Assembly: GCA_946415475.1 (NCBI GenBank)
Contig: CAMKSQ010000004.1
Location: 898 to 64,897 of the forward strand
DNA length: 64,000 bases
Source of the DNA: an uncultured Bacteroidales bacterium
GTDB lineage: Bacteria > Bacteroidota > Bacteroidia > Bacteroidales > UBA932
Direction of reading: 5' to 3'
The notes below the pieces were generated by a model. The model was not told the origin of the DNA. It was given only the letters and a program-made list of their open reading frames with translations, and made no database searches. The translations under genes were made by a program, and so were the position numbers. Positions 21,445 to 57,145 of this stretch are shown in pieces (positions within the stretch are counted from its first letter, which is position 1; every line of letters begins with the position of its first letter).

Positions 21445-21531
21445 CGGTGAGTGAGGGATTCGAACCCCCGGTACGCTCACACGTACACCTGTTTTCGAGG
21501 CAGGCTCCTTCAACCACTCGGACAACTCACC
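21445..21531 (-). tRNA. tRNA-Ser (anticodon CGA)
   Basis: Reverse strand reads GGTGAGT TG TCCGAGTGGTTGAAGGA ... CCTGC CTCGAAA ACAGG, then a long variable arm (GTGTACGTGTGAGCGTACC) and GGGGGTTCGAATCCCTC ACTCACC G. It is an 87-nt class II tRNA with no encoded CCA. Confidence 0.85.
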
Positions 21532-22697: not shown

Positions 22698-23634
22698 AAT
22701 AAGGATTGCTTAACGTGGTTTGGATGAGCGGATCCGTGCCGATATAAGGCAGGATGCGCGTGCCGAAGAGGTATCGACCCGTATTGTAAGCGTCGTAATA
22801 GGCGTCATCCGGCACAAAGCTGCCGATTTTTACCAGGCCCAGCGAGTGGATGAAGCGGCCGTTGCCCAGGTAGAAGCCCACATGGCTGATGCCGGCGGTG
22901 CCGTCCTCCTTCCATCGACCAAAGAAAACCAGGTCTGCCGGCTTAAGCTCGTTCATGTCCGTAATGCGCTGGCCCACTTTGCTTTGCGGACCGGCGTCGC
23001 GGGGAAGGATGAGGTCGTGCATGAACAGGACCGTGCGTACGAAACCGCTGCAGTCCATACCTTTGGGCGACATGCCGGCCCAGAGGTAGGGGAAACCCAG
23101 CATGCTTTTGGCCGTTGCCAGGATGGCTTCGGGACTATTGTCGATGTCCTTGCGCCAGTCGTCTTCCTCCTTTGCCAGTTTGCGGGAAAGGAAGCCGGTG
23201 CGCCCGTCCGGGAAGGCCACCTTGAAGTAATTGCCGCGCTTGCCCAGGTAGCGGAGCATGTCTCCGGCCACCACGTCCGACACCGTGGCGGAGCTCTTGG
23301 AAGCCTCCTGGTGCACAATGCCGGTGAGGGCCGTCACCACCACCTTCGGGGCAACGTTCCATGCGTGGTAGGTGTCATAATCCATCACGGTGATGGCGTC
23401 CTTGTGCACCCAGCCGGTATAGGTGTCCGGCGTCTGCACCTGGGGCCAGTTGTAGCTGCCGCCCGTCTGCAGAATGTGCACGGGCGTGCCCAGCAGGGCC
23501 TGCGACACCATTTCGGCGCTGTACGTAGGCGTATCGCGCAGGTTGCACACGGAAATGTTCACGACGCCCCATTCCTGGGCGAAAGCGGAAAGGCCGGCAA
23601 GCTGCGCCGCCGCCAAAAGGATCATTTTTTTCAT
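22687..23634 (-). CDS. NlpC/P60 gamma-D-glutamyl-L-diamino-acid endopeptidase with SH3b domains (YkfC-like)
   Basis: 315-aa ORF with a signal peptide. It has N-terminal SH3b-like repeats, the catalytic Cys in GMDCSGFV and His in ISHVGFYLGNGRFIHS. Confidence 0.85.
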   Translation of the reverse strand: MKKMILLAAAQLAGLSAFAQEWGVVNISVCNLRDTPTYSAEMVSQALLGTPVHILQTGGSYNWPQVQTPDTYTGWVHKDAITVMDYDTYHAWNVAPKVVVTALTGIVHQEASKSSATVSDVVAGDMLRYLGKRGNYFKVAFPDGRTGFLSRKLAKEEDDWRKDIDNSPEAILATAKSMLGFPYLWAGMSPKGMDCSGFVRTVLFMHDLILPRDAGPQSKVGQRITDMNELKPADLVFFGRWKEDGTAGISHVGFYLGNGRFIHSLGLVKIGSFVPDDAYYDAYNTGRYLFGTRILPYIGTDPLIQTTLSNPYYAE

Positions 23635-24557
23635 TCTGCTTGTAGTAATGCCAAGGCCTCCTCGACGGAAAGTGCCTTGTCGATGGTAAATTCTCCGCTC
23701 CGGGAACGGATGAGCCCGCTCAGGTGCGCGCCGGAGTTCAGCGCCTCTCCCAGGTCGCGGGCAAAGGCCCGGATGTACGTCCCCTTAGAACACGCAATGC
23801 GGATGGTGGCCTCCGGTAATCCTAACCCTGAAGTATCTGCTACGTGAATTCTTGACGATGCAGAATTGTTTGAGGATGGCATAGGGGTATCTGAACCGTC
23901 GCTTCGCGACCCCTCCCATTCGCAGCGTGCTTCGCACGGCTGTGGGCCCCTCCCTCTTACACGGCCGAGGGTGGCCATGGGTTCAGATACCCCTATGCCA
24001 TCCTCTGTAAAATCGAGCAACTCTAACTCGCTGATGTTGATGCGGTTGCGGTGGAGGGTTTCCAGGGCGGCAGCGTCGATGGCCTCCGTGTTGCCGGCCC
24101 GGTAGAGTTTCCGGGCAAGTTCGTAGGCTCGGACTCCATCCACGCTCTTGGCGCTGAACAGCGGAGCCACCTGCTCCTGCTCGCCCAGGAAGGCGGGAAG
24201 GGCGGTGCGCACGGCATCGGCACTTATATGCTCAAACGGGAACTGGCGGTCCACCTCCTTCTCCAGGTCGTACGACGGCGTGGTGGCGCCAAAACGGATG
24301 CGCGCGATATACTCTTTGTCGTGGTCCTGCAGCTCCTGCGCCCGTTTACAGGCATTGCCGATGCACACCAGCAGTACCCCCGTCGCCAGGGGATCCAGCG
24401 TGCCTGCATGCCCCACCTTCAAGTTCTTCTTCCCGAAGTGCTTGATGGCGGCATACTTGAGTTTGCGGATGACGTCGGCAGAAGTCCAGCGGTAAGGTTT
24501 GTCTACCGCCAGCACAATGCCTTCCGGATAATCGGCAATGTCGCGGCTGAAAATCAT
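23631..24557 (-). CDS. truB: tRNA pseudouridine(55) synthase carrying an in-frame repeat insertion
   Basis: VDKPYRWTSADV, GHAGTLDPLATGVLLV and CSKGTYIRAFARDLG motifs. At 308 aa it is longer than usual because of the insert at 23872-24005. Confidence 0.93.
   Translation of the reverse strand: MIFSRDIADYPEGIVLAVDKPYRWTSADVIRKLKYAAIKHFGKKNLKVGHAGTLDPLATGVLLVCIGNACKRAQELQDHDKEYIARIRFGATTPSYDLEKEVDRQFPFEHISADAVRTALPAFLGEQEQVAPLFSAKSVDGVRAYELARKLYRAGNTEAIDAAALETLHRNRINISELELLDFTEDGIGVSEPMATLGRVRGRGPQPCEARCEWEGSRSDGSDTPMPSSNNSASSRIHVADTSGLGLPEATIRIACSKGTYIRAFARDLGEALNSGAHLSGLIRSRSGEFTIDKALSVEEALALLQAE
23872..24005 (-). repeat. hairpin-forming MITE/RPE-like element inside truB
   Basis: A perfect 26-bp inverted repeat (23872-23897 / 23980-24005) encloses a 40-nt core (23940-23979) that is 39/40 identical to the reverse complement of 56372-56411. 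Confidence 0.85.
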
Positions 24558-38070: not shown

Positions 38071-38120
38071 ATGACATGAACCCCAAAAGTTGGACAAAAA
38101 ACTTTTGGGGTTCATGTCAT
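38071..38120. repeat. perfect 21-bp inverted repeat (hairpin)
   Basis: ATGACATGAACCCCAAAAGTT 38071-38091 and AACTTTTGGGGTTCATGTCAT 38100-38120 with an 8-nt loop. It lies 36 nt downstream of the stop of the 38156-39262 gene. Confidence 0.8.
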
Positions 38121-53363: not shown

Positions 53364-54353
53364 TTAGCTCTCCGCCGCGCGCTTGAAAAGGGCGTAGGCT
53401 TTCATGAAGGTTCGGGCCGAAATGGCAGGGGAGCCCAGCAGGACCTGACCCTCTTCCTTGATGTTGCCGATAACGCCGCCCTGCGCCATGATGGTGGTAT
53501 GGTCGGCAATCTTCACGTGGCCGGCAATGCCCACCTGGCCACCGAAGATGCAGTATTTTCCCACCTCGGTGGAACCGGCGATGCCCGTCTGCGCCGCCAT
53601 GGCGGTATGGTCGCCGATTACCACGTTGTGCGCAATCATGCACAGGTTGTCGATGCGGACGCCGTTGCCGATGATGGTGGACTCCATCTGCGCGCGGTCC
53701 ACGGTGCTGTTGGCACCAATTTCCACATCGTTGCCGATGACCACGTTCCCCAGGTGCTCAATCTTTTCCCAACTGCCGTCCGGACGCGGAGCGTTGCCAA
53801 AACCATCGGCCCCGATCACCACACCGCTGTGCAGAATGACGTTGTCGCCGATCACCATGCCCGGGTAAATGCGTACGCCGGGATAAAAGATGCAATTCTT
53901 GCCGATGGTGCAGTTCTCGCCTATGTACACCTGCTCGTGGATGATGGTATTGTCACCCACGGAGGTGTGGCGTCCCACATAGGAGAAGGCGCCCAGATAA
54001 ACGCGCTTCCCAAAGTGGGTGCTCAGGAACCAGCGTGCCCGGAGGCTGCGGTGGCACTTGGCCTTCTTCTTTTTGTCGGCCACGTACTTCAGGAGGTCGG
54101 CAATGGCGGAATAGGCATTCTCCACGCGCACCAGGGTGGGGGTTACCGGCTCCTTGGGCTCAAAGTCTTTATTGACGATGAGGATGGAAGCCTTGCTGGT
54201 ATAGACAAAGGGCTCGTACTTGGGATTGGCAAAGAAGCTGAGCGTGCCCGGCTTGCCATGTTCGATCTTGGCGAACTTGGTGGCGGTGGCGTTCTCGTCT
54301 CCTTCAACCGTTCCTTTCAGTAACTGAGCTAAAGATTTGGCAGTAAATTCCAT
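53364..54353 (-). CDS. lpxD: UDP-3-O-(3-hydroxyacyl)glucosamine N-acyltransferase
   Basis: N-terminal LpxD domain plus hexapeptide repeats. ATG 54353 (MEFTAKSL) is preferred because ATG 54362 lies inside the hairpin repeat. Confidence 0.93.
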
Positions 54354-54357
54354 AGCT

Positions 54358-54385
54358 GTCATTCTGAGCGAAGCGAAGAATCTCC
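54358..54385 (-). repeat. GTCAT-prefixed mini-hairpin (GCGAAGC core) in the gpmI-lpxD spacer
   Basis: GTC-ATTCT-GA-GC-gaa-GC-GA-AGAAT-CTCC. It shares GAGCGAAGCGA with the truB/tilS elements. Confidence 0.7.
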
Positions 54386-55905
54386 TAAATCAGCGGCTCA
54401 GCGGTCATGGCTGCCGGCTGCGGGATGCCCATCAGTTTCAGGATGGTGGGAGCCACGTTGCAAAGGGCGCCGTCCTTGACGGTTTTCACGTCGTCACCGG
54501 CGTTCATGACCACGAACTGAACGGTGTTCAGGGAGTGGGCCGTGTTGGGCGTGCCGTCTGCATTCACGGCAAAGTCCGCGTTGCCATGGTCGGCGGTAAG
54601 CAGGACCACATAATCGTGGGCGATGGCCTCGTCCACCACCTCTTTCACCAGACGGTCGATACAGCTGACGGCCTGGGTGATGGAGGTATAGACACCGGTG
54701 TGACCCACCATGTCACCGTTGGCGAAGTTCAGGATAATCATGTCCTGTTTTTCGGTGCGGATCTGGGCGATGAGTTTCTCCGCCACTTCCGGGGCGCTCA
54801 TGGCCGGCAGAAGGTCGTAGGTGGGCACTTTGGGGCTGTTCACCAGGATACGCTCTTCGTTCTCGAATACGGTCTCGCGACCGCCGTTGAAGAAGAAAGT
54901 AACATGGGCGTATTTCTCGGTTTCTGCAATGCGCAGCTGGTTTTTACCGGCCTTGGAGACGGTCTCTCCCAGGGTATCCTGCACCAGTTCCTTGTCGAAG
55001 AGGATGTGCACGCCCTTGAAGGAGGCATCGTACGGGGTGAGGCAGCAGTAGTACAGCGGAAGGGTGTGCATGCCCTCTTCCGGCATGTCCTGCTGGGTGA
55101 GTACGGCGGTGAGCTCACGGGCGCGGTCGTTGCGGAAGTTGTAGAAAATGATGGCGTCACCTTCCTCGATGGTGGCCACGGGCTTGCCGTTTTCAGTCAC
55201 CACGATGGGCTTGATGAATTCGTCCGTAATTTCGGCATCATAGCTGGCCTGGATACCGGCCTGGGCGCTCTCGAATGCGGCACCCTTGCCTTCTACCAAC
55301 AGGTCGTAGGCTTCCTTCACACGGGTCCAGCGCTTGTCGCGGTCCATGGCATAGAAGCGGCCGCACACGGATGCAACCTTACCGGTGGTCTCGGCCATTT
55401 TCTCTTCCAGTTCCTTCACGAATCCCAGACCGCTGCGCGGGTCCGTGTCACGGCCGTCCATGAAAGCGTGGACATACACTTTGTCCAGGCCTTGTTCCTT
55501 AGCTACACGCAGGAACTCATAAACATGATCCAGGGAGCTGTGCACGCCACCGTGGGAGGTGAGGCCCATCAGGTGCAGCTTTTTGCCGCTCTGCTTCACG
55601 TAGTCGTAGGCAGCCTTGATTTCTTTGTTCTCCAGCAGCTTGTGCTCGCGGCAGGCGATGTTGATTTTCACCAGGTCCTGATACACCACGCGGCCGGCGC
55701 CCAGATTCATGTGGCCCACTTCGGAGTTGCCCATCTGGCCATCCGGAAGACCTACGAATTCACCGCAGGCCTGCAGGTGAGAGGAAGGGTATTTGGCGCG
55801 GAATGCGTCAATGTTGGGGGAACCCTGGGTCCAAATAGCGTTGGAGTAGTCGTGACGGCCTTCGCCCCAGCCATCAAGAATCATGAGAAGTACTTTTCTG
55901 TTCAT
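54385..55905 (-). CDS. gpmI: 2,3-bisphosphoglycerate-independent phosphoglycerate mutase
   Basis: 506-aa ORF with [19 protein letters not shown] and ADHGNA motifs. Confidence 0.96.
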
Positions 55906-55958
55906 ATCGAGTTGTATTATTATTCAAATCAGGTGCAAAAATTCTTGTCCCCAGCCTA

Positions 55959-55966
55959 CAAAGTTA
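55959..55966 (-). promoter_or_regulatory. -7 box (TAACTTTG) of gpmI overlapping the tilS stop
   Basis: Sense TAACTTTG lies ~53 nt upstream of ATG 55905. Confidence 0.45.
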
Positions 55967-57145
55967 GTCATTTTTTGCACAAATACGAAGAATCCGGCGG
56001 GTGGTGGATGTCACCCGGACGCTATGGTCGATGCAGTAGGGGATAACGGCCAGCACGTGGTGCGGTTCCACTGCGCTTTTAAGCAGCGGAATGAACGGTT
56101 TTTCGTCGGCCGGAATATGATGGTCCGTAAACCAGTCCTGCAGTTTCTTGCGTCCCGGTGCCCCCAGCGGCTTGATCCAGTCGCCGCTTTTCCAGGCTCC
56201 CTCCGTATATTCTCCCGCCTTGTCCGCATCCAGGATAAGCACCCCCTCCGGCTGCTTCACCGCCTCCGTTCCATCCCATTCCTCTATAGCGATAGAATAC
56301 TCCTTTGAGAAACCAGGGTCTTTTGTCGTAAAGCCTGTTGAGACATCTGGAAGGGCATGTGCCTCTGACCCCATGGCCACCCTCGGCCGTGTTAGAGGGA
56401 GGGGCCCACAGTTAGTGCCCGTCGCAGAAGGGCACGACGCATTGGGAGGGACGAGGAGCGAAGCGACGAAGGGGTCAGAGGTACATGACCCTTCCAGTGT
56501 CTCTATTTCCTCTGCAAATCGGGCCATGTCCCGGTTCAGGGTTTGGATGAACGAGGGGTTGATGGTGGCAAAAATGGGGAAGACCTGATTGCGGATTTTG
56601 TTGCGTTTGTAGGCGCTCTGGGCGTTGGTGCTGTCCTCCCGCCAGGAAAGGCCATGCTCGCGGGCAAAGGCCTCGATTTCCTCGCGCGTCATTTCCAGCA
56701 ATGGCCGCCGCAGGGGAATGTCCCCAAACTCAGGATCCGGGATAAAGCCTTCCGCCTTCATGCCCGTGATGCCTTTTAGTCCGGTACCACGTAACAAATT
56801 CAGGATCAGCGTCTCCGCGTTGTCGTTGGCGTTGTGCGCCACCGCCACGGCCTCATAACCGTACTCCCGGCACAGTTCCCCAAACCAATGGTAACGCAGT
56901 CGCCGCGCCGCCATCTCAATGGAAATACCCTGTGTCGATGCAAACGCTTCCGTGTCGAAGCGCTTCACGTGGCAGGGGATGTTGTAGCGGGCCGCCTGCT
57001 CACGGACAAAGGCTTCGTCCGCGTCGCTTTCCGGGCCTCTCAGGCCAAAGTTGCAGTGTGCAACGGCAAAAGGCCCGCCTTCCTCGCGGACCTTTTCCAT
57101 AAGGCACATAGAATCAATGCCTCCGCTGACTGCAACCAGGAGCAT
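55964..57145 (-). CDS. tilS: tRNA(Ile)-lysidine synthetase carrying an in-frame repeat insertion
   Basis: PP-loop VAVSGGIDSMCL is right at the N-terminus. The C-terminal TilS domain reads GRKKLQDWFTDHHIP...PLL. TAATG overlap with the upstream gene. Confidence 0.9.
   Translation of the reverse strand: MLLVAVSGGIDSMCLMEKVREEGGPFAVAHCNFGLRGPESDADEAFVREQAARYNIPCHVKRFDTEAFASTQGISIEMAARRLRYHWFGELCREYGYEAVAVAHNANDNAETLILNLLRGTGLKGITGMKAEGFIPDPEFGDIPLRRPLLEMTREEIEAFAREHGLSWREDSTNAQSAYKRNKIRNQVFPIFATINPSFIQTLNRDMARFAEEIETLEGSCTSDPFVASLLVPPNASCPSATGTNCGPLPLTRPRVAMGSEAHALPDVSTGFTTKDPGFSKEYSIAIEEWDGTEAVKQPEGVLILDADKAGEYTEGAWKSGDWIKPLGAPGRKKLQDWFTDHHIPADEKPFIPLLKSAVEPHHVLAVIPYCIDHSVRVTSTTRRILRICAKND
56340..56503 (+). 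repeat. hairpin-forming MITE/RPE-like element inside tilS
   Basis: ~33-bp imperfect inverted arms (56340-56372 / 56471-56503) enclose the 40-nt core 56372-56411, a GTGCCC/GGGCAC hairpin (56415-56435) and GGAGCGAAGCGAC. Confidence 0.85.

Follow-up and report, generated by a model that had tools for sequence, protein, structure and literature searches.

The window analyzed here is a stretch of 64,000 nucleotides (nt) from an uncultured Bacteroidales bacterium (UBA932 lineage; contig CAMKSQ010000004.1 of assembly GCA_946415475.1), and the subject of this report is a hairpin-forming block that lies within its truB gene and whose core recurs at hundreds of unrelated loci. The host gene (23631..24557, minus strand, 308 amino acids (aa)) was identified as truB from the Pfam domains TruB_N and TruB_C_2, from relatives in the PDB and from thousands of homologues. 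The block occupies positions 23872..24005, where it encodes TruB residues 185-229; its G-rich strand is the minus strand, that is, the sense strand of truB. It is bounded by two arms, 23872..23897 and 23980..24005 (the 3' and the 5' arm, respectively, on the G-rich strand), which form a perfect 26-bp inverted repeat, named P1, with 82 nt between them. A first-pass annotation, made from the sequence alone, had pointed out this palindrome, and an inverted-repeat search over the window returned it at the top of the 12 repeats found. Also recovered were the small CGTGC-TTC-GCACG hairpin described in that annotation, located at 23926-23938, and the open reading frame (ORF) running through the block, a single one of 308 aa that contains both GHAGTLDPLATG and CSKGTYIR.

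When the G-rich strand is read inward from the 5' arm, three further hairpins and two G-rich segments are encountered, all on the minus strand. The hairpin P2, CATGGCC-ACCCTC-GGCCGTG (23960..23979), has a stem supported by covariation, and its loop CCCTC pairs with the GAGGG of the segment that follows. This first conserved G-rich segment, TAAGAGGGAGGGG (23947..23959), holds both the GAGGG partner and the only stop triplet of the core, a TAA in one frame. Next comes the variable hairpin P3 (23915..23946), closed by an invariant CCC/GGG and ending in the tip CGTGC-GAA-GCACG, which is the small hairpin mentioned above. A second conserved G-rich segment, GGGAGGGG overall, has its GGG in common with P3 and one G in common with P4, the rest lying at 23911..23914. 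P4 itself, GTCGC-GAA-GCGAC (23898..23910), is a hairpin with a C(GNA)G triloop, assigned from covariation and loop counts. The covariance model R1, described below, detects the copy at 23886-23991 with 86.2 bits (E=5e-22).

The notion of an in-frame insertion, put forward in the first-pass annotation, has to be narrowed. The ORF is indeed continuous, but 134 nt is not an integer number of codons, so that 'in frame' applies to the reading frame and not to the ends of the palindrome, and no pre-insertion site was found. In the protein, the element falls between two blocks that can be aligned to solved TruB structures. These blocks are separated by 28 residues in Mycobacterium tuberculosis TruB (1sgv) and by 98 in the TruB of the window, from which it follows that the clade carries additional sequence besides the element. 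An AlphaFold2 model of TruB, built from a 26-sequence alignment, had a mean pLDDT (predicted local distance difference test) of 40.5 and was unusable. Folding prediction, suggested in the annotation, was run as DNA and as RNA: both strands are far more stable than their shuffles, with z values of -9 to -10 for RNA and about -9 for DNA.

The 40-nt core of the truB copy (23940-23979) recurs on the opposite strand at 56372-56411, with one A/T difference, where shuffled sequences gave an expectation of 0 matches. This is the 39/40 match in reverse orientation that had been reported inside tilS, a gene of 393 aa (55964..57145, minus strand) identified by its Pfam domains and its homologues. The whole tilS copy spans 56340..56503; its G-rich strand is the plus strand, antisense to the gene, and the TilS residues encoded by the copy, 215-269, fall between the PP-loop domain (2-187) and TilS_C (319-357). 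R1 detects it at 56360-56483 (56.6 bits, E=1e-13). The P1 arms (5' arm 56340..56372, 3' arm 56471..56503) are each 33 nt long and imperfect, with 79% complementarity, and their sequence differs from that of the truB outer stem. Between them, on the plus strand, lie P2 with the first G-rich segment TTAGAGGGAGGGG (56372..56404, from the core match and R1), a longer variant of P3 (56405..56446, from the R1 alignment), and the second G-rich segment, AGGG, followed by a degenerate P4 region that includes GCGAAGC (56447..56470) and in which R1 aligns P4 as an insertion. Since the tilS copy has an outer stem of its own, it is the whole hairpin architecture that recurs and not just the 40-nt core. The two copies are oppositely oriented relative to their host genes, and one core has two readings, MATLGRVRGRGP in truB and GPLPLTRPRVAMG in tilS, each of which was found at the same site in close relatives. 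As a separate feature of this region, a tandem duplication, LILKNGQNQGRE-GENQG-LILKNGQNQGRA, is present directly upstream of the element site in several tilS homologues (P0166, P0167 and others; L126 ~2140-2230), and it occurs with or without the element.

The extent of the family was estimated by scanning a 27-nt core pattern, CCCTCGNNNNNNTNAGAGGGAGGGGCC, against one genome per species and against the JGI metagenomes. The first scan gave at least 119 stretches in at least 86 distinct assemblies, all of them Bacteroidales metagenome-assembled genomes (MAGs), and the second at least 120 further stretches, that is, at least 239 in all. Copies are therefore abundant among relatives, where a search for the core had been proposed, and what is conserved is the nucleotide core and not the peptide. 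The combination that the annotation had named as refuting its interpretation, no further copies together with a conserved peptide, was thus clearly not found. The genome matches came from goat, sheep, yak, buffalo and deer forestomachs, from horse faeces and from one human-gut bin. Some homologues of the TruB and TilS of the window (P0022, P0172) are labelled Candidatus Cryptobacteroides at NCBI. The viral contigs of IMG/VR, scanned as a check on phage carriage, contained 0 matches to the core pattern, and a metagenome search with a subfamily-specific pattern, aimed at young copies, gave no match.

The R1 model, built from 48 copies, found only the two copies already described in the 64-kb window (86 and 57 bits). 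In 755 kb of fetched loci it found about nine bystander copies, besides those that had brought the loci in. Six of these are variant subfamilies that lack the exact pattern, and four of the six lie less than 200 nt from another copy. Taken with the two copies in 64 kb, the bystanders correspond to a density of roughly one copy per 30-85 kb, which suggests dozens of copies per genome. The elements are about 85-240 bp long, with a median of ~120 bp, and have a P1 stem of 20-33 bp.

Comparison with Rfam 15 gave no match for the window at the gathering score, for the truB copy at E<=10, or for eight loci at E<=1. The families covered included twister, pistol, hatchet, HEARO and the Bacteroidales motifs, none of which matches the element positions. 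The literature searched contained nothing on the core sequence strings or on elements of this type in Bacteroidales. The statement that no equivalent was known in Bacteroidota thus agrees with both Rfam and the literature searched. The family is undescribed until now and, as far as sampled, confined to uncultured Bacteroidales from the guts of ruminants and horses, including Candidatus Cryptobacteroides.

The consensus on the G-rich strand begins with a variable P1 5' arm of 20-33 nt, which has the weak consensus ..CCGGAGGGGGTAT(n5-7)TCYnGAAACC. It continues with P2 (nnGCC-ACCCTC-GGCnn), the first G-rich segment already given, P3, with its invariant CCC/GGG closure and a size from CCCTTTAGGG to ~70 nt, the second G-rich segment, which overlaps P3 by its GGG and P4 by its last G, and P4, usually GTCGC-GAA-GCGAC; a single G then leads into the P1 3' arm. 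This four-helix fold was built by hand and tested by pair counts on a 48-sequence alignment. It replaced a structure obtained with RNAalifold on a MAFFT alignment, which had taken the invariant CCCUC/GAGGG helix over P2 and had missed P4. In the four helices, 87.4% of pairs are standard, compared to 34-46% when the partners are slid by one to three columns. Double-sided changes were seen in 21 of the 29 pairs, and none of 500 shuffles reached any of the observed measures.

The pairing between the P2 loop and the first G-rich segment exists in five versions: CCCTC/GAGGG, CCCGT/ACGGG, CCCCC/GGGGG, CCCGC/GCGGG and CCCAT/ATGGG. Non-complementary combinations were found in 0 of 256 copies, although both dinucleotides had been left free in the search. 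P2 and the loop-segment pairing are joined by linkers of just 1 nt and 3 nt; because both covary across such short linkers, the core would be either a compact pseudoknot or a pair of alternative conformers. The second G-rich segment is nearly invariant even though it lies outside the search pattern, so that its invariance is not due to ascertainment. With four G-tracts in the core, a G-quadruplex is conceivable.

Mismatches in P1 allow the two strands to be told apart. With a stem finder that penalizes all mismatches equally, 38 were G·T and 11 were A·C when read on the G-rich strand (p=1.4e-4), which argues for the fold being maintained on that strand. Among 113 copies, 89 have a C(GNA)G loop at P4, and GNRA loops are absent there. 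The DNA heptamer d(GCGAAGC) is a classic ultra-stable mini-hairpin. The P3 loops are mixed, with 36 C(GNA)G, 14 G(CTTG)C and 11 C(TTTA)G; G(CUUG)C is a classic RNA tetraloop.

Copies were frequently found in close pairs, 50-150 nt apart (L018 3014-3107/3161-3253; L007 4574-4672/4755-4848; L020 1900-1984/2048-2141; L038 5515-5610/5751-5846). The partners are on opposite strands in three of these four pairs, and in the L018 and L007 pairs a main-type copy (CCCTC/GAGGG) stands beside a CCCGT/ACGGG variant. Such pairs are reminiscent of the doublets of repetitive extragenic palindromes (REPs) and of bacterial interspersed mosaic elements. A subfamily with an added part was also noticed: TruB P0030 and TilS P0162, P0205 and P0214 have an extra module of ~17 residues nested in the element, with P2 on one side and the G-rich segment on the other, hence at the same internal position in two host genes and in both orientations (RERFSPYNPQGDTCPDGA / RDNFSPCNPPGDNCPCGA / APQGQLSPGGLQGEKLSRN).

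A large part of the family resides within genes. Among 121 well-delimited copies, 68 lie in a stop-free frame that continues for at least 120 nt on both sides, and a crude composition-based gene caller placed 56 inside genes. Most of the remaining copies have a long open frame on one flank only, consistent with gene ends and spacers; perhaps ten have one on both. The comparison made in the first-pass annotation, to palindromes that colonize ORFs as Rickettsia palindromic elements (RPEs) do, is therefore a fair description, with at least 239 stretches known and about half of the copies inside ORFs. Several frames on both strands are used, and the sole stop of the core, the TAA of GTAAGAGGG, affects one frame. 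Elements have on average 3.13 open frames out of six, compared to 2.05 in shuffles of the same composition. The persistence of intragenic copies can be attributed to this paucity of stop codons, together with the keeping of the frame where copies survive. Judged from the conceptual translations, copies would be read by the host ribosome as an extra peptide in tolerant regions, between aligned blocks in TruB and between domains in TilS. Other repeat-like inserts, also in frame, are present at the same variable spots of TruB and TilS homologues (P0016, P0020, P0062, P0073, P0077, P0115, P0236, P0216, P0217, P0232), for example GPSSVIPGPDRESQF, an N-terminal MTPGSVIPGPPVIPGPTGNL and VDQVQG..GPGP, and they suggest further read-through repeat families in these genomes.

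Orientation relative to transcription was unbiased, both inside genes (23 sense, 33 antisense) and in tandem, that is, co-directional, spacers (19 compared to 18). A cis-acting RNA should be oriented, while a DNA signal need not be; folded single-stranded DNA is for this reason favoured over RNA as the putative acting form. The intergenic copies were distributed over 21 convergent, 37 tandem and 3 divergent spacers, and were usually within ~20 nt of the end of a neighbouring ORF, often on both sides.

The history of the truB site was reconstructed from 120 TruB homologues, 74-100% identical, nearly all of which have the element or a remnant of it at the same site. Between two loci, L120 (P0022) and L122 (P0013), the 26-bp arms and the flanks do not differ, and the 82-nt loops are perfect reverse complements of each other. 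This flip changes the peptide from ..PMATLGRVRGRGPEPCEARCEWEGSRSD.. to ..PSLRDPSHSQRASHGSGPLPLTRPRVAM.., recoding ~27 residues. At least five independent flips were counted in TruB (P0001/P0022, P0017/P0039, P0018/P0024, P0020/P0073 and P0044/P0086) and at least two in TilS, for example between P0152-P0158 and P0164/P0165. At the other loci sampled, none of nine orthologous pairs was flipped. The two orientations were observed between lineages and never within one sample. The arms also change in a paired manner, as when GIGV/TPMP becomes GTGV/TPVP through ATA to ACA in one arm and ATG to GTG in the other.

Partial or whole in-frame deletions are common in TruB (P0021, P0027, P0105, P0114). Some tilS alleles lack the element: 138 nt are missing, the flanks are 100% identical, and 12 nt of the 5' arm are retained, which agree with the family consensus as well as with the arm found in L093, a distant orthologue of tilS. 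These alleles were considered as pre-insertion sites and rejected as such, since the 12-nt remnant and the widespread filled state designate them as deletions. By its distribution, the filled state is ancestral across the TilS homologues. The wide presence of the element at each site, and the deletion nature of the alleles that look empty, lead to the conclusion that both insertions are ancient; on this comparison of homologues, they predate the divergence of these species. Two other comparisons were less informative: that of L078 with L043, a candidate for an empty site, was not clean, and the flanks of the distant truB copies L022 and L101 align too poorly for relative rates.

Spread of the whole unit is indicated by three copies, L021, L061 and L097, each on a different contig of the same MAG. 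Along their full length, P1 included, they show 97-98% identity, while their flanks are unrelated, which argues for recent dispersal. No palindromy extends past their full-length P1. Outside the palindrome they share a direct motif, CT[GA][GA]AATG[AG]A on the left and GGAATG on the right (n=3), which could reflect either a target preference or the true ends of the element.

Sequence similarity between cores follows the genome. The median identity over P2-P4 was 0.83 within assemblies and 0.69 between assemblies (p=7e-10), and core identity of at least 95% was reached by 17% of same-assembly pairs compared to 0.3% of other pairs. The P1 arms, with a median identity between copies of 0.50-0.59, are diverged even within an assembly. 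At an apparently orthologous pair of sites, the P4 loop is GAA in both L078 copies and GGA in both L091 copies. Likewise, the core of L018 is 100% identical to that of L016, from the same genome, and not to that of L014, which has the same neighbourhood in another species. We conclude from these observations that core sequence is exchanged between copies, in a process of concerted evolution.

Taken together, the block in truB probably belongs, as one copy, to a dispersed palindromic repeat that is structured and non-autonomous, similar to RPEs and REPINs, and recognized as a folded single strand. The conserved core would be the recognition module for a trans-acting enzyme working on folded single-stranded G-rich DNA, as HUH/RAYT-type transposases do on REP/REPIN or IS200/IS605 ends; such a role would account for a core that is conserved and a P1 that has only to stay paired. 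Flips would result from recombination, or from replication template-switching, between perfect arms rather than from a dedicated invertase. Once resident, a copy is long-lived and changes by exact inversion of the loop, by paired changes that leave the arms complementary, by in-frame deletion and by core exchange within its genome. The 26-bp duplex in the mRNA probably lowers expression, and transcribed copies may affect mRNA stability.

Several observations weigh against this interpretation. Neither a target-site duplication nor a clean empty site was found, although more than 60 well-delimited copies were checked for direct repeats and both had been sought, as the first-pass annotation proposed, among TruB relatives and copies. 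At truB and tilS, insertion is inferred rather than observed; elsewhere it is shown only indirectly, by L021, L061 and L097. No transposase or partner was detected: an all-against-all ORF comparison in 119 loci gave orthologous neighbourhoods only, the fetched 8-kb loci contained no RAYT (Y1 HUH) candidate, and no parent insertion sequence (IS) was seen beside the copies in them. The lack of a linked protein family is the ground for calling the element non-autonomous. Ascertainment accounts in part for the invariant 27-nt pattern region, and freedom from this bias is limited to the flanking positions and the bystander copies. Strand-biased deamination, and not selection, could explain part of the G·T excess, and the mixed loop types, with G(CUUG)C frequent in P3, may leave room for a function at the RNA level. 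Finally, outer P1 is copy-specific yet palindromic even where cores are 97-99% identical; we attribute these differing but complementary outer arms to gene conversion of the core, and outward growth of the palindrome would look alike.

Other explanations differ in what they take the core to be. It might represent a new class of functional folded nucleic acid, made up of P2, the pseudoknot-like pairing, two GGGAGGGG segments, P3 and P4, rather than just a landing site for a transposase. A G-rich single strand, DNA or RNA, would then itself bring about its inversion, copying or gene conversion, or bind a host factor, and would thereby supply recoding switches across the genome in housekeeping genes; we hold this to be rather unlikely. 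The core might also work at the RNA level, as a structured product of the G-rich strand (cis-regulatory, protein-binding or a small ribozyme) that was spread by a mobile hairpin. The multi-helix covariation with its pseudoknot-like pairing, the wobble pairs enriched on one strand, the G(CUUG)C loops of P3 and a core of ~90 nt, the size of a riboswitch or ribozyme, all suit this proposal. We nevertheless think it unlikely, given the lack of an orientation bias to transcription (23 and 33 in genes, 19 and 18 in tandem spacers) and the frequent flips, as a result of which half of the copies would be transcribed as the C-rich strand. Moreover, no Rfam family is matched even at E<=10, the P4 loops are GNA triloops and neither GNRA nor UNCG, and within essential mRNAs an RNA that cleaves itself or regulates strongly would come at a cost. 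The flips themselves raise the question of programmed recoding invertons, in which a recombinase would switch isoforms of TruB, TilS and other proteins, a phase variation of benefit to the host. Exact in-place inversion between identical arms, its recurrence at two loci, a frame open in both orientations and the precedent of recoding intragenic invertons in Bacteroides (bioRxiv 10.1101/2023.03.11.532203) are what would be expected. A P1 that differs from copy to copy, however, is a poor fit for a sequence-specific invertase, the two states segregate between lineages and not within a sample, and the nine other orthologous pairs were not flipped. The recoded peptides are low-complexity loops rich in G, R, P and S, in tolerant regions, and in-frame deletion of the whole insert is tolerated, all of which makes programmed switching very unlikely.

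A further proposal concerns the limits of the mobile unit, which would consist of the core and inner stem only, while the outer P1 would arise locally each time, through duplication of the adjoining host DNA in inverted orientation or through template-switch growth of the palindrome. It would account for L174/L222 and for L016/L029/L135, where core and inner P1 are 97-99% identical while the outer arms differ and are complementary, and for the tilS allele that lacks the element and retains 12 nt identical to the outer 5' arm. But those 12 nt match the consensus and the L093 arm, outer 5' arms of unrelated loci share the weak consensus ..CCGGAGGGGGTAT.., and the filled state is ancestral across TilS homologues. 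In addition, L021, L061 and L097 have an identical full-length P1 with no palindromy outside it, and gene conversion of the core, for which there is independent support, accounts for the pattern, so that outer arms made at each site seem to us quite improbable. A last explanation takes the insert for a TruB peptide specific to the clade and kept by selection on the protein, or for an artefact of assembly, with an incidental palindrome; in its favour is the conserved position of the insert across many TruB homologues. This explanation may be practically discarded, since the same nucleotide core turns up in other frames and on the opposite strand at unrelated loci, of which there are hundreds, and the peptide is wholly replaced by the reverse-strand reading in close relatives. 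As to an artefact, a possibility raised in the first-pass annotation, it is contradicted by the distinct clusters of TruB proteins with the same insert, which number more than 100 and come from independent assemblies of four sources (NCBI, ENA, JGI and Logan).

If the dispersed repeat recognized as a folded strand is retained, its behaviour is best compared with RPEs for in-frame residence, and with REP/REPIN for 3'-end spacers, persistence and recognition in trans; these are the best-supported parallels. Ogata and colleagues reportedly described RPEs in 2000 as dispersed palindromes of 100-150 bp, many of them in frame inside genes. Rickettsia palindromic elements are also mentioned in two other reports (PMC1458961, PMC4316617). 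Both families are dispersed palindromes of 100-150 bp with intragenic in-frame and intergenic copies, add a peptide in tolerant regions, have no transposase of their own, and consist of long-lived, vertically inherited copies. The resemblance is claimed for behaviour alone, all hosts found here being Bacteroidales; the phylum and the base composition (63% G+C here) are different. The Bacteroidales family is also distinguished by a near-invariant multi-helix core with pseudoknot-like pairing inside a fast-evolving stem, by in-place flips and by the concerted evolution of its core.

With the REP/REPIN-RAYT system the family shares long-kept hairpin repeats at the 3' ends of genes, a preference for convergent spacers, the occasional occurrence of close pairs and the lack of target-site duplication. 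REPs and REPINs are presumably recognized in folded, single-stranded form by an HUH enzyme that acts in trans and is present in a single copy. REPs are, however, strictly extragenic, shorter and without a branched core, whereas about half of the Bacteroidales copies are in ORFs. The ends of IS200/IS605 elements and the palindromes derived from them likewise act as folded single strands, their intra-strand pairings going further than simple hairpins, and cause no target duplication; a short target preference may be a further likeness (n=3). They differ in having distinct left and right subterminal hairpins rather than one long closing stem, and the Bacteroidales family has no associated TnpA or TnpB in the fetched loci.

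The miniature inverted-repeat transposable elements of bacteria (MITEs), such as the Correia elements of Neisseria and the QMITEs of Coxiella (PMC10969869, PMC5896051), are also short and non-autonomous, with terminal inverted repeats. Co-transcription and the addition of residues to proteins are possible for them too, and their hairpins, like those described here, would be expected to be RNase III substrates. MITE termini, however, are conserved and match those of a parent IS, whereas in the Bacteroidales family it is the centre that is conserved, and variation is greatest at the termini. A target duplication, TA or otherwise, was not seen, so that two defining tests for MITEs failed. Finally, the intragenic invertons documented in Bacteroides (bioRxiv 10.1101/2023.03.11.532203) resemble the truB and tilS copies as segments flanked by inverted repeats within an ORF, with both orientations present, both open, and two protein variants produced. 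They differ as single loci, found as mixtures in one culture and with a presumed invertase, whereas the Bacteroidales unit is a multicopy repeat with copy-specific arms, and its two states are seen only between lineages.

In-frame palindromes were once a Rickettsia curiosity, and the Bacteroidales family would show that they have had an independent origin. It would also link selfish palindromic repeats with protein-recoding inversions, which suggests a source for some recoding invertons. The family makes good study material, with hundreds of copies in many species, clear covariation, and natural variants by flip, deletion and conversion at each site. Its conserved core is an unannotated structured motif, directly testable for protein binding, G-quadruplex formation and catalysis. 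On the practical side, the elements alter gene lengths, create spurious antisense ORFs and 'hypothetical' peptides, and will confuse orthology and variant calling in rumen metagenomes.

Some minor features of the window and of the fetched loci may be recorded. A motif at 54358-54382, GTCATTCTGAGCGAAGCGAAGAATC, which includes GCGAAGC and occurs once in the window, adjoins elements in L024, L090 and L093 and is apparently read as HSERSEESI in TilS P0233, as deduced from the peptide; it gives the impression of a further dispersed repeat of the Bacteroidales. At 38071-38120 there is an inverted repeat, perfect over 21 bp and with 8 nt between its arms (ATGACATGAACCCCAAAAGTT / AACTTTTGGGGTTCATGTCAT), which is unrelated to the family. 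Long stop-free frames run antisense to genes, for example at 22720-23847 (plus strand, 375 aa) and 54337-56046 (plus strand, 569 aa); they are an effect of the G+C-rich composition and can mislead reasoning based on ORFs. The window contains two tRNA genes, at 1981-2055 and 21445-21531, both on the minus strand, and the Bacteroidales small signal recognition particle RNA is encoded in L014 at 2283-2390.

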